A stretch of DNA of 64,000 bases, from positions 32,001 to 96,000 of IMG/VR virus record IMGVR_UViG_3300043449_000492. One strand, 5' to 3'. Of the stretch, positions 20,601 to 39,551 are shown in pieces. A program made the translations under genes and the position numbers. Numbering within the stretch: position 1 is the stretch's first letter; each line of letters opens with the position of its first letter. This stretch comes from a virus. Under the pieces are notes generated by a model. It did no database searches and was not told where the DNA came from. It saw nothing but the letters and a program-made list of their open reading frames with translations.

Positions 20601-20685
20601 TGCTGGTGATATTCTAGCGTATAACGTAGCTACAGTAGATGCAACAACTCGTCTCACCATTTCGCTAAAAGTGACTAAGACCTAA
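17650..20685 (+). CDS. Long modular tail fibre protein
   Basis: N-terminal 'IAIKKSG...LANGELAINYADGKLYYK'; 'GDVWWNSNLGSLFIYYNDGDSSQW'; 'NVGIGTTSP' repeat; C-terminal 'IGFVIDGGG...' adaptor-like domain. Confidence 0.78.
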   Translation: MANTTIAIKKSGTPAAVPAALANGELAINYADGKLYYKNTTGQIVSISGSGGNSFGIANVDNILILSSTGNDVLNFRSGNGVSLSACSTTRTITFNGTTNVPISPTAPSTPVAGDVWWNSNLGSLFIYYNDGDSSQWIEAVPTGGTTAGGSGSDAAAFTHANAAFDQANNSYVNANNAANSSNSFAVTIGASSNAWANSLSTIDRAIANAAANSANSVASASYYTIANGTSAFAKANAALANSTGTFAGDLRVTGNVVTNTINSMSGFIDLGPGSRPSYLEGRIYYDNVDKSLTVFNNDSNFVLPLGQKEFVKVLNNSGATINRGQPVYATGFHATSHHHITIGLADASDAAKYDVIGLAGHDILNGDHGYVIVRGWIGGFDTSGLTQGQRFHLGFASPGTLVTTSPEYPNYPYDIGYCIVSDATNGFLYVDRQSHTQESIRVLNGARIGGDMTVEGDFTVLGTQTVTSTSSLSVGTQYIYLSAGDSIPNSNITFTGTGLNDLSFKGHYEGIGTTTFYVKITGSNVDGEYFTWSYNNFVSNVATNTKILYQTSQPLSNGISVYFQANTGHTVGDTWNASVTAVSTDSGFVTNHTDPGRYTHAGMFRDATDGTFKFFNTYDAEPAGNIDIANSTFSLGNVQVLKITADEIFAGATEIGGLVPLSYDTANAAYSAANTKLSNTSGVAFIGSLYFPSGNIAIGSGFSNYPLTIVSGGVTPLAGLTGALATAEGTVNGTNQFNLRNAGAGSAASSDYIATSNDGSETTNFIDLGINNSGYNAPAFWTINGPRDGYLYMPDGNLSIGVANTTATYKFVNFFLGGALAADEVMRLQDSAGGANVGIGTTSPDYKLCVTGTINAANILVNQVPVVSNAATTLFTGTSNNTNFVAGANAAEVITASIGFVIDGGGAVIEPGQKGHIEVPFSATINQWTMLLDQTGSANVEIWKESYANFPPTNGDTINTGGFQVSTGVKNQGSLFNTSSTINAGDILAYNVATVDATTRLTISLKVTKT

Positions 20686-21635
20686 TGGCTACTAACGTAT
20701 ATGTCGCTATTACCACAACTAGTCAATGGACAGTTCCTGATGATTGGAACAATATTGATAATAGCATCATTTGTATTGGTGCAGGTGCTGGTGGTTATCT
20801 AGCTCCTGCAACTACAGGTTCTCCTGGTGGCGGCGGCGGTTCGTTTGCTATCTCAAATAACTTTACACTAACACCTGGCACAAACATCTTCATTAACTGT
20901 CAAGGTGTATTAACCGCTGCTAATACTAATGGTGCTAATACTTGGGTTAATGTTGCTTCTAATGCTGCTCCCGCATCAGCGGCAGGAGGAGCATTAGCAA
21001 CAGGTGGTAGAACACCTACTACTCAGACTACTGGCGGTATTGCCGTTGCAGGTTCTATAGGAACAGTAACTAATCTTGGCGGCAACGGCGGTACAGCTAC
21101 TACCGCTACATTTACTGCTGGTGGCGGTGGAGGATCTGCTGGACCTGCTGGTGTAGGTAGAAACGGTGGTAACGGCGATACTGCAACAGCAGGTGACGAC
21201 GGTGGTGGCGGCGGCGGTGGTTCTAATGGAGGCTCATCTACCGCTGGTGGTAACGGTGGTACTGCTGGTGGCGCTGGTGGTCAGGGTTCTGGTGGTACAG
21301 GAGCAGGAACTGGCGGCTCCAACGCTGATGGTGGCGATGCTACAGCAGGTTCAGGCGCTGGTGGCGGCGGCGGCGATAACGGTAGAAATGGCGGCGATGG
21401 CGCTATACAAAACATCTGGAATATTAGTGGCGTTGATTATGGCCCGGGCGGCGGTGGAGGTGGTACAGGTAACCAAAGTGCTGGTACTAACTTAACTGGC
21501 GGAAACGGCGGCGCATTTGGTGGCGGTGGAGGTGGTACAGAGACTGCTGGTAGCGGTCTTGGCGGCGGTGGTCTTGTTATTGTTCGTTATAGTCTTCCCT
21601 CAAAAGGTTACGCATACGGTTATATAATAGGATAA
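20685..21635 (+). CDS. Glycine-rich (polyglycine-II) adhesin-like protein
   Basis: 'WTVPDDW...ICIGAGAGG...GGGGG...GGGGLVIVRY' glycine-rich domain; translationally coupled to the upstream fibre. Confidence 0.7.
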   Translation: MATNVYVAITTTSQWTVPDDWNNIDNSIICIGAGAGGYLAPATTGSPGGGGGSFAISNNFTLTPGTNIFINCQGVLTAANTNGANTWVNVASNAAPASAAGGALATGGRTPTTQTTGGIAVAGSIGTVTNLGGNGGTATTATFTAGGGGGSAGPAGVGRNGGNGDTATAGDDGGGGGGGSNGGSSTAGGNGGTAGGAGGQGSGGTGAGTGGSNADGGDATAGSGAGGGGGDNGRNGGDGAIQNIWNISGVDYGPGGGGGGTGNQSAGTNLTGGNGGAFGGGGGGTETAGSGLGGGGLVIVRYSLPSKGYAYGYIIG

Positions 21636-21659: not shown

Positions 21660-23327
21660 ATGGCATTAAATTTCCCAAGTTCACCAATTAACGGTCAAAT
21701 ATATTTCGATGCATCATCAGGCAATCGTTATGTGTATGATTCTGCGAATACGATTTGGACATATGCTGCTAATAACTCATTAGTCGGTTCAGCAAACTCA
21801 CAGATTCTATTCAATAACGAGGGGTCTATAGATGGATCTGATGCTCTCGTTTTTGAAGCCAATACTCTTTATCCTCAAGAAATCGTTGTCACACAAAACT
21901 CAACCGCTACTTACTACTTTGGTAACGGTGCGTTTCTTACAGGTATTACAGCTGGTGTAACCGACTTAAGTGGTGCAAACGGATGGGCAAATAGTCTATC
22001 AACTATCGATAGAGCTATTGCTAACTCTGCTGCTAACTCTGCTAATGCTTATGCGATCACAATAGGTGCTGCAGCCAATGCAACTCATTACATCTATGCA
22101 AATAACGTAGCAAACAATTCCAACGCTTATGCTGGTACTCTATGGACTAATGCTCTTATCAATGCTAACAATGATGCCAATAGTGCTAATGCTTATGCAG
22201 GAACACTTTGGACAAACGCTTTAATCAATAGCAATAACTCCGCTAATTCTGCCAACGCATATACTGTAACAGTTGGTGCAGCAGGGAATACTGCTGCTTA
22301 CATCTTTGCTAACGGCGTCGGCAACGCAGTTAACGCATTTGCTTCGGCGACATACTATGCTAAATCTGGAGGAACAGTATCTGGCGATGTTGTTATTACA
22401 GGTAATCTAACTGTTTCTGGTCAAACAACATACGCTAATACAGGCACTCTACTTGTAGGCGACAATATTGTTGTTCTCAATGCTGACATTCCAGGTTCAA
22501 TGTCGCCTATTGAAAATGCTGGTATCGAAATCAATCGTGGTTCTAAGAGTGCTAATGCTCAGATTCTATGGATTGAGTCTGCAAATGCTTGGGGTTTCAC
22601 AAGTAATTCACAAAACGGTGTCACAACTTACTTTGCTTCTAATGCTGATATTGTCTTAGATCGTGCAATAGCTAATGGTGCCGCAAACTCAGCAAATGCA
22701 TATGCGGTGACAGTAGGAGCAGCGGGCAACACTGCAGCATATGTTTTTGCAAACGGAACTGCCAATAGTGCAAATGCTTATGCAGTCACTGTAGGAGCAG
22801 CAGGAAATACTGCTGCTTACATCTTTGCAAACGGAACTGCTAATAGTGCAAATGCTTACGCCGTTACAGTTGGTGCTGCAGCTAATGCCACACATTACAT
22901 ATACGCAAACAATGTGGCTAATAGTGCTAATTCATTTGCGGTAACAATTGGAGCATCTTCTAATAACTGGGCTAATACTAAAGGTGTAGTCAATAACACT
23001 CTAACATTTACTAATTCATCAATTTTTGCTAATACACTTCTTACAACATCTGCAACAAGCCAAATTCTTGATGTGTTTTCGACTTCAACTTGGAGGTCAG
23101 CTAATTACATAATTACAATGAATACGACTCCATCGCTATTTCATACTACCCAGATTGTTCTATTACATGACGGAACAAATGCATATATTACTGAATATGG
23201 CACATTGTTTACATCTAACAATTTAGCCCTATTTGATGCAACTATTGTCTCTGGAAACGTAAGATTGAATGTTGTTCCTTCTGTAGCGGTTACCACAATC
23301 AATTTTGTAAGAACGACAAATAAATAA
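21660..23327 (+). CDS. Tail fibre protein with Ala/Asn coiled-coil repeats
   Basis: N-terminal 'ALNFPSSPINGQ...YVYD'; ~26-aa repeats 'ANSANAYAVTVGAAGNTAAYVFANGT'; C-terminal 'RSANYII...LLHDGTNAYITEYG' domain. Confidence 0.75.
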   Translation: MALNFPSSPINGQIYFDASSGNRYVYDSANTIWTYAANNSLVGSANSQILFNNEGSIDGSDALVFEANTLYPQEIVVTQNSTATYYFGNGAFLTGITAGVTDLSGANGWANSLSTIDRAIANSAANSANAYAITIGAAANATHYIYANNVANNSNAYAGTLWTNALINANNDANSANAYAGTLWTNALINSNNSANSANAYTVTVGAAGNTAAYIFANGVGNAVNAFASATYYAKSGGTVSGDVVITGNLTVSGQTTYANTGTLLVGDNIVVLNADIPGSMSPIENAGIEINRGSKSANAQILWIESANAWGFTSNSQNGVTTYFASNADIVLDRAIANGAANSANAYAVTVGAAGNTAAYVFANGTANSANAYAVTVGAAGNTAAYIFANGTANSANAYAVTVGAAANATHYIYANNVANSANSFAVTIGASSNNWANTKGVVNNTLTFTNSSIFANTLLTTSATSQILDVFSTSTWRSANYIITMNTTPSLFHTTQIVLLHDGTNAYITEYGTLFTSNNLALFDATIVSGNVRLNVVPSVAVTTINFVRTTNK

Positions 23328-23555
23328 ATGACAACATCTAATGTTACAGTTGTTCAAGCAGAAGTTCTTTATACAGGAAATCCGACGGTCAATGTTTCGA
23401 CTGTTCAGACAGAAGTTCTTTATGTTCCTAATACTGTCAGTATTAATGTTGCTTCGTTTGGATTGCAAATCTTTTATCAGTTTGGTCCTGAACCTCCATG
23501 TTCAAGAGCAGTTATTAATAGATATACTTCTATTAGAGGACAAGTTTCATTTTGA
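23328..23555 (+). CDS. Small protein of three tandem beta-strand repeats; paralogue of 37136..37435
   Basis: Repeats SNVTVVQAEVLY / VNVSTVQTEVLY / INVASFGLQIFY; ATG immediately follows the upstream stop; clear paralogue elsewhere in the window. Confidence 0.8.
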   Translation: MTTSNVTVVQAEVLYTGNPTVNVSTVQTEVLYVPNTVSINVASFGLQIFYQFGPEPPCSRAVINRYTSIRGQVSF

Positions 23556-29916: not shown

Positions 29917-30591
29917 ATGATAAACTATGTACCTTACACATATCTGATAGGATGGTCTAAGCACAATAAGTGGTATTATGGCTGTCAGTATGGTGTAAAC
30001 GCAAATCCTAGCAATTTATGGAACATTTATTTCACTTCTTCTAAAAAAGTTAAAACTTTCAGAAAAGAGTTTGGTGATCCGGATATTATTCAAATAAGAA
30101 GAACTTTTAAGACTAAAGAGTCTGCTAGACTTTGGGAACATAGAGTCATAGAACGCACAAATGCGGTATCCAAAGACAAATGGTTAAATGCAGGAAACGG
30201 CGGAAAAGAGTTTCTAAACAAAGGCGGTTATAAGTTATCTGAATCAACTAAGATGAATCAACGAAAGCCTAAGCCTGAGGGATTTGGAGAAAAAATAAGT
30301 AAAGCAAAAAAAGGTGTGCCTGGAGTAAGTGGTGCTAGTCATCCTATGTTTGGAAGAAAACAGAGTTATGAGTCCAGACAGTTAATGAGTGACGCCAAGA
30401 AAGATAAGTATGTAGGAAAAGATAATCCGTTCTTTGGAAAACAACATAGTATCGCAATGAGACAGCATCTTAGTGATAGAGCAAAATCAAAGTTGAGATT
30501 GACATGTCCTCAATGTAACAAGACTATGGACTCAAGTAACTTCAAGAAATATAATCACGGTCTAGAATGTAAAAGGTTTATATGCCTGTAA
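29917..30591 (+). mobile_element. Free-standing homing endonuclease (Seg/GIY-YIG-like with NUMOD3 repeats)
   Basis: 'YTYLI...WYYG...YFTSS...E...WLN' catalytic-type N-terminus; 'HPMFGRKQS' and 'NPFFGKQHS' NUMOD3 motifs; C-terminal CPQC; inserted between gp13 and gp14. Confidence 0.82.
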
Positions 30592-31472
30592 ATAGATACT
30601 TTCAAAATTATCCTGGGCAGGCACGTTTTAATAACGAACACATGCTCATAGAAGATGTTATTGTTGAGTCCATAGAGATTATGGGTCATGCCATGTATTA
30701 TATTCCTAGAGAGTCTTTTGATGAAGGGGATATGATTTTTGGTGAGTATAGTAAATCTAAATTCAATAAAGCATATCTCATTGATGGTTATTTGGCTAAC
30801 GTAACGGGATTCGAGGGAGACGGGGATTTTTTTGGTCGTTTCGGTCTAGAGATTAGAGATACCTCAAACTTTGTTATCTCTCGTCGTTCATTTGCTAAAC
30901 ACGTTCCTTCATCTATGAGACATAGACCCCAAGAAGGCGATCTAGTTTACGTTCCAGTTCTTCATAAAATGTTTGAGCTTAAGTTTGTCGAACAGGAACT
31001 ACTCTTTCACCAAGTCGGCAAGCGTCTACCATATGTGTATGAGCTACGTTGTGAAGCATTCCGTTTTGCACAAGATGAGATTGATACTGGTGTTGAGGAT
31101 ATCGATCTTGTAGCAGAAGAGAATGCTTACAAGAGAAAACTAAATCTCAATACATCTGGCACAGGTAACATTCTTGAAGGCGATGTTATCTATCAAAGTG
31201 AAGATGGAACCTGGGCAAATGCAACTGCTCATGCAACCGTATCCGATTGGTTCAAGGCTAACGGCACAACATTCATCTATGATATTTCAGGAATATTTAC
31301 TGCTGGTAGTAATGTTTATGCTAATAGCACAAATGCAATTTATAGAATTACATCTATAGATGATGAAAAGTCTGATTTTGTTAAGTATGACATTTATGAT
31401 AATGAAAACTTTGACACAGGAGCCGATCTAATTCTTGATCTGACCGAAGTTAATCCGTTTGGAACACCATAA
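30582..31472 (+). CDS. gp14: Neck protein gp14
   Basis: 'ESIEIMGHAMYYIPR', 'GFEGDGDFFGRFGLEIRD', 'RPQEGDLVY' and C-terminal 'DLTEVNPFG'. Confidence 0.92.
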   Translation: MPVNRYFQNYPGQARFNNEHMLIEDVIVESIEIMGHAMYYIPRESFDEGDMIFGEYSKSKFNKAYLIDGYLANVTGFEGDGDFFGRFGLEIRDTSNFVISRRSFAKHVPSSMRHRPQEGDLVYVPVLHKMFELKFVEQELLFHQVGKRLPYVYELRCEAFRFAQDEIDTGVEDIDLVAEENAYKRKLNLNTSGTGNILEGDVIYQSEDGTWANATAHATVSDWFKANGTTFIYDISGIFTAGSNVYANSTNAIYRITSIDDEKSDFVKYDIYDNENFDTGADLILDLTEVNPFGTP

Positions 31473-32485
31473 TGTTAGGACATGCTAATTTCTATCATCA
31501 TCTAACAAGAAAAGCAGTCATTCTCTTCGGTAGAATGTTTGATGACATTACGATTGTCCGTAAGAACGATCAGACAGGTAAAGAAGTATCTCGCTCACTA
31601 GTTCCTATTGTATATGCCCCTAAAGAGAAGATGGTCACTCGCATTCTTGAGGATCCTGATCTACTAAGACAGCTACAGACTATTCTTCCTCGTATGTCGT
31701 TTGAGATTACAGGCATTACATACGATGCAGCAAGAAAGCATAACTCACTACTTAAGACAAATAAGACTAGCACATCAACATCAGCCTCGACAGCTTATGT
31801 AGGTGTTCCTTATGATATCACATTCTCGCTTCATGTGTATGCTAGAAACATTGACGACGGAACACAAATTGTTGAACAGATTCTACCATTTTTTAATCCG
31901 GATTTCACCGTTACCGCTAGAATGGTACCTGATCTGGGGTTTCTTAAAGACATACCAATCGTTCTTAACAACGTAAGCAATCAGATTGAGTATGAAGGAA
32001 ACTATGACTCGGTAAGATATGTCTACTGGACATTAAACTTTACAATGAAAATGGACTACTATGGTCCAATCACTAATACTAAGATCATTCGTACCGTCTA
32101 TGCGAATATCTATAATGATCCAAGTCTTAAATCAGGATATATCACTAAGCTAAATCTAGCTAATGCAAATGGCACTTTTAAAGCCGAAGATATGGTATAT
32201 CAGGGTAACACTTATAAAACCGCAACGGCTTATGCTTTTATCTTGCATCATGACACAAATAACAATCTATTGACTCTTGGAGCTACTCAGGGTCAGTTTA
32301 AGGTAAATAACAAGATACATGCTGTATCAACAAATGCTAATGCAACTATAGCTTCTTTCTATGCTAATCCATTGCATCTAGTAGAAATCAAGATAACGCC
32401 AGATCCGATTACAGCAAATCCTGGCGACGATTACGGTTATAATATTGATATAACTGAATGGCCTCGAACTGAGGCAAACACATAA
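31472..32485 (+). CDS. gp15: Tail sheath stabiliser/terminator gp15
   Basis: 'FYH...RKAVILFGRMFDDI', 'VPIVYAPKEK', 'LPRMSFEI' and 'QIVEQILPFFNP'. Confidence 0.93.
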   Translation: MLGHANFYHHLTRKAVILFGRMFDDITIVRKNDQTGKEVSRSLVPIVYAPKEKMVTRILEDPDLLRQLQTILPRMSFEITGITYDAARKHNSLLKTNKTSTSTSASTAYVGVPYDITFSLHVYARNIDDGTQIVEQILPFFNPDFTVTARMVPDLGFLKDIPIVLNNVSNQIEYEGNYDSVRYVYWTLNFTMKMDYYGPITNTKIIRTVYANIYNDPSLKSGYITKLNLANANGTFKAEDMVYQGNTYKTATAYAFILHHDTNNNLLTLGATQGQFKVNNKIHAVSTNANATIASFYANPLHLVEIKITPDPITANPGDDYGYNIDITEWPRTEANT

Positions 32486-32513
32486 ATACTATAAACACAA
32501 ATAGAGTGGAAGA

Positions 32514-33839
32514 ATGCCTCAGAAACTTATAAACATCGGTACAGAACCAAATGACGGCAATGGCGACACGCTTAGAGGAGCGTTTGCTAATACGAACAAT
32601 AACTTCGTAGAGTTGTATGGTCTTCTTAGCGGAACTTTTTCTCAAGCAGAATATGCCGCAACACTAGCAAATGCGGCATATAGTTATTCTAATGCCGTAT
32701 ATAGCAACTTTACCGACGTTTTCAATAGTGCTAATCTAGCACTAGATCAGTCAAACACGGCAATCCTACGACTAGGAACTGCCAATCTTGCTTATGATAC
32801 TGCCAATCTTGCATACATGATGGCAAATAATTCTATATCAGCATTCATTGCAGCTAACAACGCTTCAAATACAGCTATTAGCTCTTTTAGATCAGCCAAT
32901 CTGTCTCTTACTAACTCAATTACTGCATCTAGGCTTTCAAATACTGCATCAATAACTGCCAATGCTGCTTTTGAAGCTGCAAATTCTGCTTTACTTTCAT
33001 CACCTGTTCCAGCTTTTGATCAAGCTAATGCGTCTTATACTTTAGCTTCATTTGCACTTAACAACTCTGTGCAAGCAACAAATGATGCCATGGTTGCACA
33101 TGATAAAGCAAATGCAGCTTATACCGCAGCAAACGATGCTTTTGGATTGGCAACGTCTTCATACAATTATGCTAATGACACATACATCGTTGCTGATGCT
33201 GCAGGATATGTTGCAGATTTATCATTTGATAAAGCCAATCTAGCATTTGAATATGCAAATATTTCTCTTGCTCAAATCAATTCAGCTTTTGAGTTTGCTA
33301 ATAGTTCTTATAACACTGCTAATCTTTCCGGAGTCATAGCGGGTCTCGCTTTTGATAAAGCAAATTCCGCATTTGAGTCATCTTCTGTTCCTGCATATAA
33401 TACAGCCAATGCGGCATACTCTCAGGCTAACTTAGCATTTTCTGCTGCTAATGATGGCACTAATATTGCTATCTCAGCATTCAATAAAGCTAATGTTGCA
33501 GCTTATGATGTTGGAGGTTTTGTTACTGGTGTCACCTTAGCAAGCGAAAGAATCTTTCAATTTAATGTTGTTAGAGACTTTATGATTGCTGCAAATTGTT
33601 CAGGTTCTAGAGGTAATACCACAAATACTGCAACAGCAACGTCAATTTTTACAATTAGCAAGAACACCTCAAATGTTGGAATTATGATTTTTGATACTGG
33701 AGCGATTTCTGCAACATTCAATACATCAGGAAACATTCTCTACATGAATGTAGGAGACTACTTGTCTGTTACTGCTCCAGAGTCACCAGATGCCACATTG
33801 TCCGACTTCTCGTTCACATTCAAGGGAGTTCTAGTCTAA
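32514..33839 (+). CDS. Coiled-coil fibre (neck/whisker or tail-associated) with gp9/gp10-type N-terminal anchor
   Basis: 'INIGTEPNDGNGDTLRGAF..TNNNFVELY' N-terminus; long 'AFDKANSA'-type repeats; small beta C-terminal domain. Confidence 0.75.
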   Translation: MPQKLINIGTEPNDGNGDTLRGAFANTNNNFVELYGLLSGTFSQAEYAATLANAAYSYSNAVYSNFTDVFNSANLALDQSNTAILRLGTANLAYDTANLAYMMANNSISAFIAANNASNTAISSFRSANLSLTNSITASRLSNTASITANAAFEAANSALLSSPVPAFDQANASYTLASFALNNSVQATNDAMVAHDKANAAYTAANDAFGLATSSYNYANDTYIVADAAGYVADLSFDKANLAFEYANISLAQINSAFEFANSSYNTANLSGVIAGLAFDKANSAFESSSVPAYNTANAAYSQANLAFSAANDGTNIAISAFNKANVAAYDVGGFVTGVTLASERIFQFNVVRDFMIAANCSGSRGNTTNTATATSIFTISKNTSNVGIMIFDTGAISATFNTSGNILYMNVGDYLSVTAPESPDATLSDFSFTFKGVLV

Positions 33840-34924
33840 TGGCTCTTTTATTTTGGGACGGATTTGACTCATATAGTAATATGGCACAATTAGCCGCGGC
33901 ACGACCCTTTGTGAATCCTTATCTTTCACAACTAGGTTTCGTATTGAATCTCTATACAACTGGCGGCCGCTGGAATGGTGGTTATGTAGGATCTACTGGA
34001 AGTTCCTTTCAAGGAACGGGTATAATTGATATTAGTTCTTTTGCTACACCTACAGAAATGTATCAGGGAAGAGCAGTATATATCACACAAAATACAGCAA
34101 GTTTAACACAGATTTATGAAAATGCTGTTTTTGGATATATTTCTCCTGCAGTGTGTATTTCTGTTAATAACGGCGTAGTTAGTGCATGGAGAGGATATTC
34201 TACCGCTAACTATCTGATAGGAGCATCCGCCGCAGTATTTAATCTTAACACTTGGAACTTTATTGAGACAAGAACCAAAATATCATCTTCTGCTTCTACT
34301 GCTGATGGCATAGTTGAAGTTTGGCTAAACAATAGAAAAATTATTAGTAATACTTCTTGCGTGACTAAAACATCAAATTCTTCCACATATTACAATGGCG
34401 TTAACATCAGTCAAGTAGAAGGAAACCTGGGTGGTAGAACAGATGATATCTATGTTCTAGACACAACTGGTCCTGCTCCATGGAACGAGAGACTGGGTGA
34501 TTGTCGCATTGCATCTATAACTGTAACCTCTGATGCTGGTCCTAATGAAGGCACAACATCAACAGGCAATAATTCACATTATACTGTTGTTGATGAGATA
34601 ATAGCTAACAATTCCGATTATATACTTTTTAGTGCTGAACAATCTGGTTTAGGCGAAATGTTTACACATTCAAGTCTACCTAATACAAATGCATTTTCCA
34701 TTCTAGCAACTTCTATAATAGTTTCAGCCGCTAAGACAGATGCAGGAAATGCTACATTTAAAATTGCAATGAAGTCTGGAGCATCCACGTATAATTCAAC
34801 TACACAATATATGTCTACTTCTAATACTAAATATAGACAGGATTGGACAACAAATCCTGCCACAAGTATTCAATGGACGCTAGAGGAATGGGCCAATGCC
34901 AATGTTGGTTTTTACGTAGTTTAA
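33839..34924 (+). CDS. Lectin/ConA-like virion protein, paralogue 1 of 3
   Basis: 'MALLFWDGFD', 'WNFIE...GIVEVWLN', 'DDIYVLDTTG...RLGD' and C-terminal 'NPATSIQWT'. Confidence 0.7.
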   Translation: MALLFWDGFDSYSNMAQLAAARPFVNPYLSQLGFVLNLYTTGGRWNGGYVGSTGSSFQGTGIIDISSFATPTEMYQGRAVYITQNTASLTQIYENAVFGYISPAVCISVNNGVVSAWRGYSTANYLIGASAAVFNLNTWNFIETRTKISSSASTADGIVEVWLNNRKIISNTSCVTKTSNSSTYYNGVNISQVEGNLGGRTDDIYVLDTTGPAPWNERLGDCRIASITVTSDAGPNEGTTSTGNNSHYTVVDEIIANNSDYILFSAEQSGLGEMFTHSSLPNTNAFSILATSIIVSAAKTDAGNATFKIAMKSGASTYNSTTQYMSTSNTKYRQDWTTNPATSIQWTLEEWANANVGFYVV

Positions 34925-34933
34925 GGAAACAAG

Positions 34934-35983
34934 ATGGCACTTATTATATGGGACGGTCTAGATCCATACGCCTCATTAGCAGAGTTTAGAAACTGTCAGC
35001 CAAGAGTATTGACTGGAACGTCAGAGGTTTTTCAGACTACGAGCGGCCGCTTCAATGGCTGTCGTTTATATGTTGATGGCAATACTAATGATGCTTTTAA
35101 GGTAGATATTTCTGATATAAACGCTAGTCAGATATGGACAGGACGAGCAAGTTATCATCAATCAGCATATTCAGCAACAAATGTTCTTCTCTTTGTAGCT
35201 AGAAGCAATACAGGTATCGAAGCTAGTGTTACAGCAGATTCCGATGGAACCGTTAAAGTTTACAAAGGTGATAGAGGAACTTTAATTGCTAACTCTGCTT
35301 CTGGTGTATTTTTAAGAGACCAATGGACATGGCTTGATATTTTTTATAACATGGACGCCACCACAGGAGGTGTGGAAGTCTGGATCAATAACAGTCGTGT
35401 CGTCAATCTAACAAATGCTAATACAAAAAATTTTGGCAACATTTCAAACAATGTTATTAACTCTGTCACAATTGCGACCAATCAATACGGATCTAGCGAC
35501 GACTTTTATATTCTAAATACAACTGGTTCTGCTCCATGGAATACAAGACTTGGTGATTCCCGAGTTGTTAATTTAATTCCAATTACAGATTTTGGAGCTA
35601 ATTCTGGTACGCCATCAACAGGCACAGCACACTATGCAGTTATAGATGATTCTAGAGGTACAACAGATTATCTTAGTATACCAGTCACTAATGGAACAAG
35701 CATCGAAAGATTTGTCAAAAATACATCACCATTGGGAGCAAATGCTACTATTTTAGCAGTAGGACCCTATAATTATAGTAGAAAATCTGATGCTGGTATA
35801 GCTAATTTAAGATCATTGATTATTAACAATAGTTCAGGATATTTTATAAATGGCAATTTACAAATAACGTCTACCTCTTGGCAACCTTATGTCGATTTCT
35901 ACACAACAAATCCTGAGACTGGTACTCAATGGACATACGATACACTATCTACTAATCACATTGCATTAGTCGTTACTAAATAA
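34934..35983 (+). CDS. Lectin/ConA-like virion protein, paralogue 2 of 3
   Basis: 'MALIIWDGLD', 'GGVEVWIN', 'DDFYILNTTG...RLGD' and 'NPETGTQWT'. Confidence 0.7.
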   Translation: MALIIWDGLDPYASLAEFRNCQPRVLTGTSEVFQTTSGRFNGCRLYVDGNTNDAFKVDISDINASQIWTGRASYHQSAYSATNVLLFVARSNTGIEASVTADSDGTVKVYKGDRGTLIANSASGVFLRDQWTWLDIFYNMDATTGGVEVWINNSRVVNLTNANTKNFGNISNNVINSVTIATNQYGSSDDFYILNTTGSAPWNTRLGDSRVVNLIPITDFGANSGTPSTGTAHYAVIDDSRGTTDYLSIPVTNGTSIERFVKNTSPLGANATILAVGPYNYSRKSDAGIANLRSLIINNSSGYFINGNLQITSTSWQPYVDFYTTNPETGTQWTYDTLSTNHIALVVTK

Positions 35984-35993
35984 GGAAATAAAA

Positions 35994-37139
35994 ATGGCAC
36001 TTCTATTCTGGGAAGGTTTCGATTCAATCACTACGTGGCAAGAAATGTTTAGTATGATTCCAAACTTTGTAACCACCTGGGATCTCAGTCAGGGAGGCGC
36101 CACCATTGCAACTAACTGGTCCAGCACTTCAGGACGATATGGCGGTGGTTCAACATATCCCGGGGTCGCCGACGGATGGGGAAGAATTTATCTTTCTTCC
36201 ATTCCATCGGAGGTATATACAGGCCGTGCAATCTATTTGGGAATAACAGCCGCAGGTCCAGTCTGCGGCATCGTGTGTTTCTGGGGCAACGATAAAAATA
36301 ATGCTGGTTATAGTCAAGACGGACCTGCTCCAGACATTTGGCTTGAACATGCTGGAGCAGGTGTCCTCAGAGTATATAACTCTACGAATGGTGCCAGCTG
36401 GAGTTCCTCACGTTATGGAGCCGGCAGCGGTGTATTAATCGGCACGACGCCCGCTGGTACATTCAGACCTTATAGTTGGCAATGGATCGAAGTAAGATGT
36501 AAAATGTCTTCAAGCAATACTACAAATGATGGTATTGTGGAAGTATGGCTTAACGGTACTAAAATCATTAGTAATACTTCTTGTATCACTAAATCAAACA
36601 ATGCTGCGACAGGCTATTTTGGTGTTAATACTAACTCATCTTATGGAGGAGCGACTGATGACATTTATGTTACCGATACTACGGGAGCAGCTCCATGGAA
36701 TGGTAGACTTGGTGATGTAAGAATCACTACGGCTGTTCCTAATTGGGACGTTGGAGCAAACTCTGGTACTCCTTCGACAGGAACATCACATTGGGCTGTC
36801 GTTGATGAAACTTCCTATAATACAACTGACTATCTTATTATTCCAAATGTTGTTACAAATACAGAGCGTTTTTATCATACTAGATTGCCTACACCAGCAG
36901 CTAACATATTTGCAATCAATCCCAATATATATGCTCTTAAGTCTGACGCAGGTGTAGCAAACATTCAGCCGATCATTGTTGCCAATGCTTCTGGTTACTA
37001 TACAAATGCTAATACGATTGTATTGACTACATCTTATCTCAGATATAAGGATTCTATCACAGTCAATCCTGAAACTGGACTTCCATGGACCGATACAGAG
37101 TTTACTAATACTCAAATCGGAGTTGTTGTAGTAGCATGA
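35994..37139 (+). CDS. Lectin/ConA-like virion protein, paralogue 3 of 3
   Basis: 'MALLFWEGFD', 'GIVEVWLN', 'DDIYVTDTTG...RLGD' and 'NPETGLPWT'. Confidence 0.7.
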   Translation: MALLFWEGFDSITTWQEMFSMIPNFVTTWDLSQGGATIATNWSSTSGRYGGGSTYPGVADGWGRIYLSSIPSEVYTGRAIYLGITAAGPVCGIVCFWGNDKNNAGYSQDGPAPDIWLEHAGAGVLRVYNSTNGASWSSSRYGAGSGVLIGTTPAGTFRPYSWQWIEVRCKMSSSNTTNDGIVEVWLNGTKIISNTSCITKSNNAATGYFGVNTNSSYGGATDDIYVTDTTGAAPWNGRLGDVRITTAVPNWDVGANSGTPSTGTSHWAVVDETSYNTTDYLIIPNVVTNTERFYHTRLPTPAANIFAINPNIYALKSDAGVANIQPIIVANASGYYTNANTIVLTTSYLRYKDSITVNPETGLPWTDTEFTNTQIGVVVVA

Positions 37140-37435
37140 CCACTGCTAATGTTACGGTTGTTCAAACAGAAGTTCTTTATGAACCAACTCCTGCTGATAT
37201 TAGAGTAACTTCTACAACTAATGAGGTTCTATATGAACCTTCTAATGTAACTGTTAACGTCGCTTCTTTTGGCGTTCAGGTACTAATGAAGAATCCGTAT
37301 GAACAATTTCAGGCTATTAGCTCAGAAGTATTATATACTCCTACTAGTAATATTCAAGTTCAAACGGTTACTGTTGAAGTCCTTCTGAAGTTTGTTACTA
37401 ATAACCGTAGAAGACCAGTTTATGTTGCAGGATGA
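37136..37435 (+). CDS. Small protein of five tandem beta-strand repeats
   Basis: ANVTVVQTEVLY / IRVTSTTNEVLY / VNVASFGVQVLM / FQAISSEVLY / IQVQTVTVEVLL; ATGA overlap with the upstream gene. Confidence 0.8.
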   Translation: MTTANVTVVQTEVLYEPTPADIRVTSTTNEVLYEPSNVTVNVASFGVQVLMKNPYEQFQAISSEVLYTPTSNIQVQTVTVEVLLKFVTNNRRRPVYVAG

Positions 37436-37441
37436 TAAAAC

Positions 37442-37894
37442 ATGGGACTTGAAAAGAATCTATCAGATGCATTAGGCATCGAACATGCTCCAGTTGAGGT
37501 GAAAGAAGTGAAACAGGAAGTAATACCATATGAAGCTCCACAAGAGCTAACCGATGAAGATGAAGATTACATTCTAGTGAGAAAGACCCTTCGCAATCTA
37601 ATAGTAAAGGGAAACGACGCTATTGAAGAAATCGCCCAAATTGCTAGACAAAACGAAAGTGCAAGAGGTTTTGAGGTTGTTTCTAATCTCATCAAAACTG
37701 TTGGAGAAACGTCGAAAGACTTATACGCCTTACAGAAAACAAAGAAAGACCTAAAAGACCCTGATCCTGATTCTGATCCTCGTAGGAAGAATCCTGAAAG
37801 CATCAACGTGGAACAGGCTGTGTTTGTGGGTTCTGCTGCTGAGCTTTTGTCTGCGATAAAGAAGAACAAAGAAAATGGCTCGACTTCCTCATAG
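37442..37894 (+). CDS. gp16: Terminase small subunit
   Basis: 'DYILVRKTLRNLI', 'ARGFEVVSNLIK' and 'AVFVGSAAELL'; overlaps gp17. Confidence 0.9.
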   Translation: MGLEKNLSDALGIEHAPVEVKEVKQEVIPYEAPQELTDEDEDYILVRKTLRNLIVKGNDAIEEIAQIARQNESARGFEVVSNLIKTVGETSKDLYALQKTKKDLKDPDPDSDPRRKNPESINVEQAVFVGSAAELLSAIKKNKENGSTSS

Positions 37895-39551
37895 CTATCA
37901 AAGCAATCCAAACTTACCTAACGAGCAGTATCGTCACTCATTCACACAACATGAGTTGGATGAGTATATCAAATGTGCAGAAGATCCTGTTTATTTTGCT
38001 CGCAAATATATTCGTATCATCAACGTCGACCGCGGCTTGATTCCTTTTGATATGTGGGACTTCCAAGAGAAGATGCTTTCTACATTTCATGAGAATCGTT
38101 TCTCTATTTGTAAACTTCCCCGACAGGTCGGCAAGTCAACAACAAGCGTTGCATACATTCTTCATCAGGTATTATTTAACGAAAACTTTGTATGTGCTAT
38201 TCTGGCTAACCGTGCACCAACTGCTAGAGAACTACTAGGTAAACTTAAGCTCGCATTCGAGTATCTACCGATGTTTCTTAAACAAGGCATCAAAGAATGG
38301 AACAAGGGTTCAATCTATCTTGCTAATGGTTCAAGAGTTCTTGCAGACTCTACATCAGGTTCATCAGTTCGTGGTTTCTCGTTCAACTTAATCTTTCTAG
38401 ACGAGTTTGCGTTCGTACCAAACAACATTGCCGAAGAGTTTTTCAATTCAACTTATCCTACCATTTCATCTGGTAAGACTTCTAAAGTTGTTATCGTCTC
38501 GACACCAAACGGCATGAACTTGTTCTATAAGATGTGGACAAAAGCAGTTGATAAGACGAGCGATTATAGGCCCATCGAGATTCATTGGTCTATGGTACCT
38601 GGAAGAGACTCGGCATGGGCAGAAGAAACGATCAGAAACACTTCGCAAAGACAGTTCGATCAGGAGTTTGGTTGCGAGTTCTTAGGATCATCCAATACAC
38701 TAATCAATGGTTCTAAGCTTGCTGCACTACATTGGAAAGAGCCTGTTCGTCGTATGGAATGTATGGACGTATTTGAGGAACCTATTCATAAGCATACATA
38801 CGTTCTCACAGTAGACGTTTCAGAAGGTCAAAGTCTTGACTATTCAGCATTCTCTGTGTTTGACGTTACGGAAATCCCATATCGACAGGTAGCTAAATAT
38901 AAAAACAACGAGATAAGTCCTATGCTTCTACCAGCAGTTGTTTATTCTGCGGCAAGAAAGTATAACGACGCTTTTGTTCTAGTGGAAATCAATTCTATCG
39001 GTTTGCAAGTCGCTGACATTCTACATCATGAATTAGCATATGAGAATCTTTTAAAGTTTCAGCAAAAAGGTAAACAAGGAACACAAGTATCTGGAGGCTT
39101 TGCTGCTGGTAAGAACAAGCTAGCCTTCGGTCTTAAAATCACGCCTCAGTCGAAGATGATTGGGTGTTCTAATCTTAAGACTCTAATTGAGAACGATAAG
39201 CTTATTCTCAATGACGAAGATACAATTACTGAGTTATTTTCTTTTGCTGCCGATAAAAAGTCATTTAGAGCAGAAGAAGGAGCTAACGACGATCTAGCAA
39301 TGACACTAGTTCACTTTGGTTGGCTCACCGCACAAAAATTATTTAAAGAAACCGTTTCTAACGATATTCGTTATGCATTGCAAAAAGAACAAGCATATCT
39401 ACAAGATGTTGACAATGTTCCTTTTGGATTTATAGACAACGGCCTGAATGATGACGTGGAACAAGATGCTGATGGTGATTTATGGACGAGAGATAGAGAA
39501 AAACACTATCCTTTTGATGACCTTGGATATGACTGGCTAGCCAGACTTTGA
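37875..39551 (+). CDS. gp17: Terminase large subunit
   Basis: Walker A 'PRQVGKST', Walker B 'IFLDEFAF', 'STPNG', nuclease 'VDVSEG...DYS' and 'DDLAM'. Confidence 0.97.
   Translation: MARLPHSYQSNPNLPNEQYRHSFTQHELDEYIKCAEDPVYFARKYIRIINVDRGLIPFDMWDFQEKMLSTFHENRFSICKLPRQVGKSTTSVAYILHQVLFNENFVCAILANRAPTARELLGKLKLAFEYLPMFLKQGIKEWNKGSIYLANGSRVLADSTSGSSVRGFSFNLIFLDEFAFVPNNIAEEFFNSTYPTISSGKTSKVVIVSTPNGMNLFYKMWTKAVDKTSDYRPIEIHWSMVPGRDSAWAEETIRNTSQRQFDQEFGCEFLGSSNTLINGSKLAALHWKEPVRRMECMDVFEEPIHKHTYVLTVDVSEGQSLDYSAFSVFDVTEIPYRQVAKYKNNEISPMLLPAVVYSAARKYNDAFVLVEINSIGLQVADILHHELAYENLLKFQQKGKQGTQVSGGFAAGKNKLAFGLKITPQSKMIGCSNLKTLIENDKLILNDEDTITELFSFAADKKSFRAEEGANDDLAMTLVHFGWLTAQKLFKETVSNDIRYALQKEQAYLQDVDNVPFGFIDNGLNDDVEQDADGDLWTRDREKHYPFDDLGYDWLARL

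Follow-up and report, generated by a model that had tools for sequence, protein, structure and literature searches.

What does a protein of 99 residues, built of short strand-like repeats, contribute to a phage tail when its gene directly follows those of a fibre and three lectin-like paralogues? The question is raised by a cassette within the window, i.e. the whole 64,000-nucleotide stretch analyzed here (positions 32,001 to 96,000 of IMG/VR virus record IMGVR_UViG_3300043449_000492). An original prediction, made from the letters alone, had viewed the paralogues as subunits short of a beta-strand and the small protein as a peptide donating that strand to several of them at once. Every open reading frame (ORF) of the set, i.e. 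fibre, three paralogues and small ORF, was found at the positions given in that prediction, and together they represent a tail module that is real, is undescribed so far, and recurs in many unrelated phages. The components of the module, along with a second repeat ORF elsewhere in the window, are as follows (lengths in amino acids, aa).

32514..33839, + strand: fibre protein, 441 aa; ORF with a gp9/gp10-like N-terminal motif, an Ala/Asn-rich shaft and a C-terminal tip domain
33498..33836, + strand: fibre C-terminal tip domain, residues 329-441, about 110 aa; third conserved component of the cassette, with PHROG matches
33839..34924, + strand: paralogue 1, 361 aa; ConA-like N-terminal domain and C-terminal beta domain; phrog_2448, E 9.2e-28
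34934..35983, + strand: paralogue 2, 349 aa; phrog_2448, E 9.1e-19; family profile, E 7.6e-91
35994..37139, + strand: paralogue 3, 381 aa; phrog_2448, E 4.3e-21; modelled with AlphaFold2
37136..37435, + strand: small EVL-repeat protein of 99 aa, with five strand units (about 17 residues each) ahead of a basic-hydrophobic tail, RRRPVYVAG
23328..23555, + strand: second EVL-repeat ORF, 75 aa; three repeats and a divergent tail without the RRR motif; repeat profile, E 1.1e-4

The architecture predicted for the small protein, five strand units followed by the RRRPVYVAG tail, was confirmed, with EVLY/QVLM/EVLL motifs at residues 12, 30, 48, 64, and 81 and a period of 16-18 residues. A hidden Markov model (HMM) of the repeat was built from 8 repeat proteins of other phages only and searched against 4,037 six-frame ORFs spanning 360 kilobases (kb). 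Among all six-frame ORFs of the 169-kb genome to which the window belongs, the small ORF was recovered at E 7.8e-8 and the second repeat ORF at the value listed above, with no match below E 6 in the rest of the genome. Recovery of the 99-residue ORF by a model built from foreign proteins shows the repeats to be more than chance. Furthermore, comparison of the window-type alignment (A3) with the foreign alignment (A9) in hhalign gave a probability of 80.5% (E 1.3e-5), and the small protein aligns in register with gp316 of phage phiCbK and others. Across the 360 kb, all repeat-HMM matches below E 1e-3 adjoin a member of the paralogue family, except the second copy in the window, and in four complete phage genomes (1.03 Mb in total) repeat matches were found only at distances of up to 1.2 kb from a family member. 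The window protein shows this same association, its E-V-L units of about 17 residues adjoining a phrog_2448-type gene.

Direct searches with the small protein returned little. It yielded no match in Pfam or PHROGs (phrog_13560, discussed below, was not reached by the window protein itself) and no match by tblastn among 50,697 phage records. In a set of 5.8 billion sequences, just four homologues could be recognised, including the 75-residue second copy. Longer proteins fused to it were not found with a word index that is noisy for so short and repetitive a query, a search of PDB sequences with the repeat profile gave no solved relative, and ESM Atlas features returned low-scoring leads only. 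A literature search with the repeat motifs found no paper on the motif, and one on the cryo-electron microscopy of phages phiCbK and Chi found nothing on these genes.

The three lectin-like paralogues begin with MALLFWDGFD (1), MALIIWDGLD (2), and MALLFWEGFD (3) and end with NVGFYVV (1), HIALVVTK (2), and QIGVVVVA (3); the shared start strand and the NP.T..W.. C-terminal end described earlier are present in all of them. Paralogues 2 and 3 are 32% and 44% identical to paralogue 1. The contrast originally drawn between a variable N-terminal and a conserved C-terminal half holds in direction, the C-terminal part being better conserved (36-49% from residue 205 versus 28-37% over the first 140), but the difference is modest only. 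The family HMM matches all three over profile positions 1-341 (E 1.5e-100 to 7.6e-91; 2.1e-96 for paralogue 1), and paralogue 1 covers positions 1-332 of the 335 in phrog_2448. The matches are full-length and include the MALLxxDGFD start and the DPxT..W..(16-19 aa) end of phrog_2448-type proteins. An exhaustive search assigned 4,211 clusters to the family at E <= 0.001, nearly all of 320-370 residues. Genome-wide, there are three family members only, all at 33839-37139. The final strands in the window (VGFYVV, IALVVTK, and IGVVVVA) are hydrophobic on both faces, while most family members have Lys or Glu alternating in the final strand (e.g. GVKVTA, GVEVV); judging from the residues, the two-faced strand may reflect coverage by a partner in this lineage.

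The fibre encoded ahead of the paralogues is rich in Ala, Asn, and Ser and poor in Pro and Gly. Its N-terminus resembles Pfam T4_gp9_10_N (PF07880) below threshold (E 0.029, 14.9 bits, cut-off 25), and residues 4-39 match the baseplate wedge subunit phrog_958 (E 0.0014). At the other end, residues 329-441 match the C-terminal region of phrog_7049, a 'tail fiber protein' (E 1e-18); phrog_11585, phrog_22757, and phrog_29809 likewise match this C-terminal domain. A domain of the phrog_7049/11585 type terminates gp24 of Achromobacter phage AchV4, a 366-residue protein of Brevundimonas phage Leszy, a 721-residue protein of contig L014, phiCbK gp317, and gp115 of a Mesorhizobium phage; in each of these five phages, the gene for the tip-domain protein immediately precedes family members or the repeat protein. 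Since the tip domain recurs upstream in other cassettes, the cassette is tripartite, and the earlier sketch of a fibre, lectin-like proteins, and a small protein acting as a set is borne out by this shared domain. A fibre of 1011 residues was also considered as a carrier of the phrog_7049 tip domain and was dropped; PHROGs assigns its tip to other families.

Recurrence of the cassette carries the main finding. EVL strand repeats adjoin family members in approximately 19 of the 21 lineages examined (14 clear, 5 weaker), with 1 to about 10 units per protein, each of about 17 residues, placed N-terminally, C-terminally, internally, or on a free-standing small protein. Some cases are independent of adjacency, namely phiCbK and Providencia phage Stilesk, which were reached through their repeats, as well as six family representatives and six IMG/VR loci, which were picked regardless of repeats; the remaining cases were found by looking beside family members. 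In phiCbK, gp316 carries three RVTQETVEVIS units and the tail RPRRLIFMLGA and is encoded between tail protein gp317 and family member gp315, 8 nucleotides (nt) from the latter. In Stilesk, a tail fibre and four family members are followed by a 662-residue protein with four N-terminal units. In all six IMG/VR loci, found with the family alignment, the gene that follows opens with such units, some of them weak, the repeat-bearing proteins being of 74, 265, 450, 784, and 873 residues. The six arbitrary representatives comprised four clear cases, one weakly positive, and one unclear.

Further cassettes vary the same arrangement. In huge phage LR756511, VRITQQPVEVLG occurs four times in an 80-residue protein encoded 50 nt away from a family member; with the three units of phiCbK gp316, it establishes that the RVTQxxVEVxY strand cited in the original prediction exists. 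Leszy has two family members and then a Gly-rich protein with five C-terminal 'xxxxxEVLx' units, and the repeat modules of Leszy and the huge phage match phrog_13560. Mesorhizobium phage Cp1R7A-A1 has two family members and then a 103-residue protein with five units and a KRR tail, while in AchV4 a tail fibre and three family members precede a 578-residue protein with five variant AQFAQVL units. Among the arbitrary representatives, the small-protein form recurs on contigs L025 (105 residues, four units) and L026 (70 residues, three units, the preceding protein bearing a further four at its C-terminus), and L027 has two family members, a 68-residue four-unit protein, and then a 189-residue protein with about 10 units. 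The layout of the window itself is seen on L029, where three tandem paralogues precede a 68-residue three-unit protein with an RRRPLYIS tail, and on the related contig L005, where the order is fibre, three paralogues, a 100-residue protein, and gp16. The 189-residue protein of L027 (4266-4832) consists almost wholly of tandem 'RVSQVAVEVL' units and is the most repetitive member seen. Stilesk (L030 260-6489) and AchV4 (L031 15318-20991) are Chi-like (Casjensviridae) siphophages in which the cassette lies just before the lysis genes.

These gene arrangements support the view that the lectin-like proteins, the strand-repeat protein, and the fibre C-terminal domain act as a functionally linked set across diverse phages. 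How the parts would fit together depends first on whether the paralogues are complete. An AlphaFold2 model of paralogue 3, built with a 94-row alignment, has two domains, with a predicted local distance difference test (pLDDT) score of 88.5 and a predicted template modelling (pTM) score of 0.90, and its last strand, residues 374-380, is itself confident. The distance from the conserved Trp to the C-terminus is 16-19 residues in 93 of 94 family representatives, and the 'abrupt' stop is therefore the norm for the family. This common endpoint, the confident monomer model, and family members that occur without a repeat protein argue against an incomplete C-terminal domain; the family fold is modelled as complete, and nothing indicates an absent strand.

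These results bear directly on a strict donor-strand arrangement, in which paralogues short of a strand would receive it from the repeats and one peptide would string together up to five heads. Its appeal lies in the amphipathic strand repeats and their gene linkage, in the strand that follows the last family strand in cis in the Lucius type (below), and in the equal numbers of paralogues and repeats in Stilesk (four and four) and L029 (three and three). Against it stand the uniform C-terminus and the monomer model, the occurrence of the family with no repeats nearby in Tetraselmis viridis virus S20 and Sphingomonas phage Kimi, and paralogue-to-repeat ratios of 1:3, 2:5, 3:5, and 2:4+10, which misfit one head per strand. 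In addition, no match to chaperone or usher families was found in Pfam or PHROGs among nine proteins scanned at 30582-39551. We regard this arrangement as quite improbable.

Natural fusions provide a view of the repeat strand beside the family domain on a single chain. The search for cis-strand fusions proposed earlier was productive, revealing a type, named here after Sphingomonas phage Lucius, in which an EVL-type strand follows the last strand of the family. In Lucius and Sphingomonas phage Kharn, the family domain lies inside a 527-residue putative tail fibre. Across 13 Lucius-type homologues the order is conserved, i.e. last family strand, four-residue turn, one EVL-type strand (e.g. GGATEVRVSQLGYQVLVP), and discoidin domain, after which the C-terminus is formed by an invariant RRRQ-hLVL tail. 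The best alignments of the repeat HMM, individually weak, fall on the EVL-type segment in 11 of the 13, and this segment is the only or best-scoring domain in 10. The AlphaFold2 model of the Lucius type (pLDDT 83.8, pTM 0.82 overall) places a strand at residues 348-360 with pLDDT above 90, four residues past the last family strand at 334-343, while the RRR tail (residues 517-527) has pLDDT below 50. From the four-residue turn, we infer that the cis strand and the last family strand form a hairpin. The extra final strand that the original prediction describes as frequent in related domains fits these rare fusions only. In Kimi (L021 2896-5768), the family member directly follows the tape-measure gene and the next protein begins with a discoidin-like HRYW domain of the kind fused to the family domain in Lucius; the family and discoidin-like parts stand on separate proteins there, and Kimi is thus a split form of the Lucius fusion, without a repeat strand between.

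The reading that we tentatively prefer, at somewhat less than an even chance, is that the repeats serve as a portable docking tether binding the lectin-like proteins by beta-strand addition. The parts would be a fibre or tail protein ending in the phrog_7049-type C-terminal domain of about 110 residues, one to four paralogous two-domain proteins (ConA-like jelly roll plus conserved beta domain), and tandem 'h-x-h-x-Q-x-x-h-E-V-L' repeats, often with an Arg-rich hydrophobic tail, which are free-standing here and fused elsewhere. Each repeat would add a beta-strand alongside the last, exposed strand of a lectin-like C-terminal domain, after the fashion modelled for the natural cis fusions; since the lectin-like proteins are complete folds, this would be edge-strand addition and not completion of a missing strand. 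The RRR-hydrophobic C-terminal tail would plug into another partner, such that the small protein would tie the lectin-like proteins together and to the fibre or tail tip. A narrower form, a multivalent scaffold with one repeat per lectin-like subunit and the RRR tail anchored to the fibre tip domain, appears unlikely. A predicted complex of the small protein and paralogue 3 reached a score of 0.01, the mark being 0.32, which gives no verdict and is counted neither way.

Several observations weigh against docking by strand addition. Repeats are absent beside the family members of S20 and Kimi, and elsewhere the numbers of paralogues and repeats pair as 1:3, 2:4, 2:5, 3:3, 3:5, 4:4, and 2:4+10, such that the counts do not track. 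The second copy in the window (23328-23555) has no lectin-like gene nearby, and the window protein is only moderately similar to the other repeat proteins (no PHROG match, hhalign 80%). In the Lucius type, the proposed pairing of the cis strand with the last family strand draws on DSSP strands and the four-residue turn only. A structural role of the repeat proteins is weakened by virion data from relatives: AchV4 gp27, the third paralogue, and gp28, the repeat-bearing protein, are absent from the virion proteins detected by mass spectrometry (PMC7996906), and in phiCbK a 'virion-associated' note is attached to gp317 and gp319 but not to gp315 or gp316. Finally, with its roughly 10 regular repeats, the L027 protein has more the look of a repetitive fold that is complete in itself.

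This last observation favours a different explanation, in which the EVL repeats fold on themselves or trimerise as a short beta-solenoid or a trimeric beta-spiral or prism, forming a shaft or adaptor at the tail tip; the folded unit, or simply the tip that both share, would then be what holds the lectin-like proteins, and not single strands. The repeats recur regularly every 16-18 residues, with Gly/Pro-rich turns and copy numbers from 3 to about 10, and they are often N-terminal on long fibre-like proteins (450-873 residues), the usual place where fibre shafts begin; three is the commonest count, even beside a single family member. Against such a fold, the ESM Atlas model of the 99-residue protein is poor (pLDDT 0.43, pTM 0.24), no solved relative was found by sequence search, and a solenoid cannot explain the single conserved cis copy, modelled as one strand beside the family domain. 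Self-assembly is viewed as the main rival, possible if on the doubtful side.

Presence in the virion is relevant to a further alternative. AchV4 gp25 and gp26 were detected in virions by liquid chromatography-tandem mass spectrometry (PMC7996906, Table 1), and both are family members by HMM; relatives of the paralogues are thus virion components, as established by two AchV4 proteins. The small repeat protein might instead have no structural role and assist assembly of the fibre or of the lectin-like proteins as a chaperone, comparable to factors of the Tfa/gp38 type, whose genes directly follow those of fibres. Its gene lies immediately 3' of the putative clients, the start overlapping the stop of paralogue 3 (ATGA), and repeat-bearing proteins are unreported in the AchV4 virion proteome, as is a virion note for phiCbK gp316. 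Repeats are, however, frequently found within large tail proteins and within the putative tail fibre of Lucius, and a structural role therefore fits better than that of a chaperone, for which we see a slim chance.

The nature of the heads was examined using the paralogue 3 model. The proposal of a ConA-like N-terminal half was upheld, the jelly roll superposing on solved ConA-like domains with Z up to 16.9. This best match to residues 1-244 is 8q28_A (VIA-align; root-mean-square deviation 3.2 A, 199 residues aligned), followed by the polysaccharide lyase structures 5gmt of family PL14 (Z 16.2) and 2zzj of family PL20 (Z 15.7). The best fold matches to this domain, including those from Foldseek, comprised lyases of PL14 and PL20, calreticulin, CBM66, receptor-binding domains of several phages, and a Teredinibacter domain of unknown function. 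The fold searches were dominated by the N-terminal domain; in BFVD, full-length matches were found in many phages at TM 0.7-0.78, including a virion structural protein of AchV4. By sequence, the match to the polysaccharide lyase family PF21294 in Pfam (E 7.9e-5, 22.9 bits) falls under the cut-off of 27; lectin and lyase are therefore both possible. The family profile gave E 0.0022 against PDB chain 2zzj, and no solved relative was identified in the PDB sequence search with that profile. The ConA-like N-terminal domain is probably glycan-binding or glycan-cleaving.

Comparison with known systems places the cassette among multi-headed assemblies. Branched multi-tailspike complexes are known from phages CBA120 (TSP1-4) and G7C (gp63.1/gp66), where docking occurs by folded N-terminal adaptor domains. 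By analogy, these would provide the closest known principle: receptor-binding proteins are encoded in tandem and clustered via docking modules, and the fibre in the window likewise starts with a gp9/gp10-like motif, below threshold in Pfam. In contrast to CBA120 and G7C, a small protein of its own carries the candidate docking element here, as a string of 17-residue strands, and uncharacterised two-domain proteins with a ConA-like fold provide the heads. Donor-strand complementation in Fim and Pap pili similarly pairs an amphipathic beta-strand, as proposed here, with the sheet of another polypeptide; yet pilins are short of a strand and unstable alone, whereas the domain studied here ends uniformly and is modelled as complete, and the strands here are in tandem on one peptide, with no chaperone or usher among the nine proteins scanned. 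The concept of a cellulosome scaffoldin, a multivalent scaffold holding carbohydrate-active or carbohydrate-binding subunits by a portable docking tag, is also shared. The repeat unit, however, has 17 residues compared to a domain of about 150 in cohesin-dockerin pairs, and Pfam gave no cohesin or dockerin match in the paralogues or in the small protein (the latter even at E <= 10). Jelly rolls on phage tail tips are found in the CBM2 of the evolved Dit of Lactobacillus phage J-1, in mycobacteriophage TM4 gp23, and in the Douge baseplate, and the paralogue 3 model matches phage tail-tip structures 5ly8 (Z 12.2), 9n6a (Z 12.2), and 8zdo (Z 13.4). Those domains lie within Dit or receptor-binding protein chains, whereas in the window they form proteins in their own right, extended by a conserved C-terminal domain and accompanied by a repeat protein.

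The 169-kb record that includes the window is a T4-like virus whose assembly ends are direct terminal repeats and whose large terminase is about 53% identical to marine cyanomyophage counterparts. The cassette is preceded by the genes for a neck protein and the tail sheath stabiliser gp15 and followed by those for the small terminase gp16, the large terminase gp17, and gp18; the position between gp15 and gp16 identifies the cassette as an insertion within the late structural block. According to Pfam and PHROGs, the named neighbours across 30582-39551 are all phage neck, tail, or packaging proteins. An ORF of 224 residues at 29917-30591 lies just upstream of the neck gene, amid structural genes, and its N-terminus looks like that of a GIY-YIG-type homing endonuclease.

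The second repeat ORF occupies a different setting. It begins at the base after the TAA stop of a 555-residue fibre gene (21660-23327), in the same frame; in phiCbK, only one TAG separates gp316 from tail protein gp317, whose reading frame it shares, giving an open frame of 1493 residues with 1 TAG. A read-through fusion is conceivable from the reading frames, which could also be shared by chance. Two genes upstream of the second repeat ORF, at 20685-21635, lies a Gly-rich protein of 316 residues, and in Leszy (L002 5720-7150) five repeats form part of a Gly-rich protein that matches Pfam ALK_LTK_GRD (E 1.9e-11). By its gene content, the second locus may be a variant cassette with a Gly-rich protein in place of the lectin-like proteins.

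Both phrog_2448 and phrog_13560 are annotated as 'unknown function', and their linkage is unrecorded in the PHROG libraries. The results unite these two families and a tail-fibre tip domain in one cassette found in marine myophages of the T4 type, in siphophages related to phiCbK or to Chi (Casjensviridae), in Sphingomonas phages, and in a huge phage of 595 kb, with phiCbK, AchV4, Stilesk, and Mesorhizobium phage Cp1R7A-A1 as culturable carriers. The window holds one member of this widespread, undescribed cassette, which we rate as a variant of the known phage receptor-binding modules with docking adaptors. If the repeats are docking strands, they would provide a simple, portable rule for attaching interchangeable lectin-like heads to tails, and if the strand-scaffold reading is true, phages would display mixed, exchangeable glycan-binding clusters with valency set by repeat number, through a docking principle that is undescribed. 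Such a rule, if true, would be of use in host-range prediction and in understanding receptor-binding modules.

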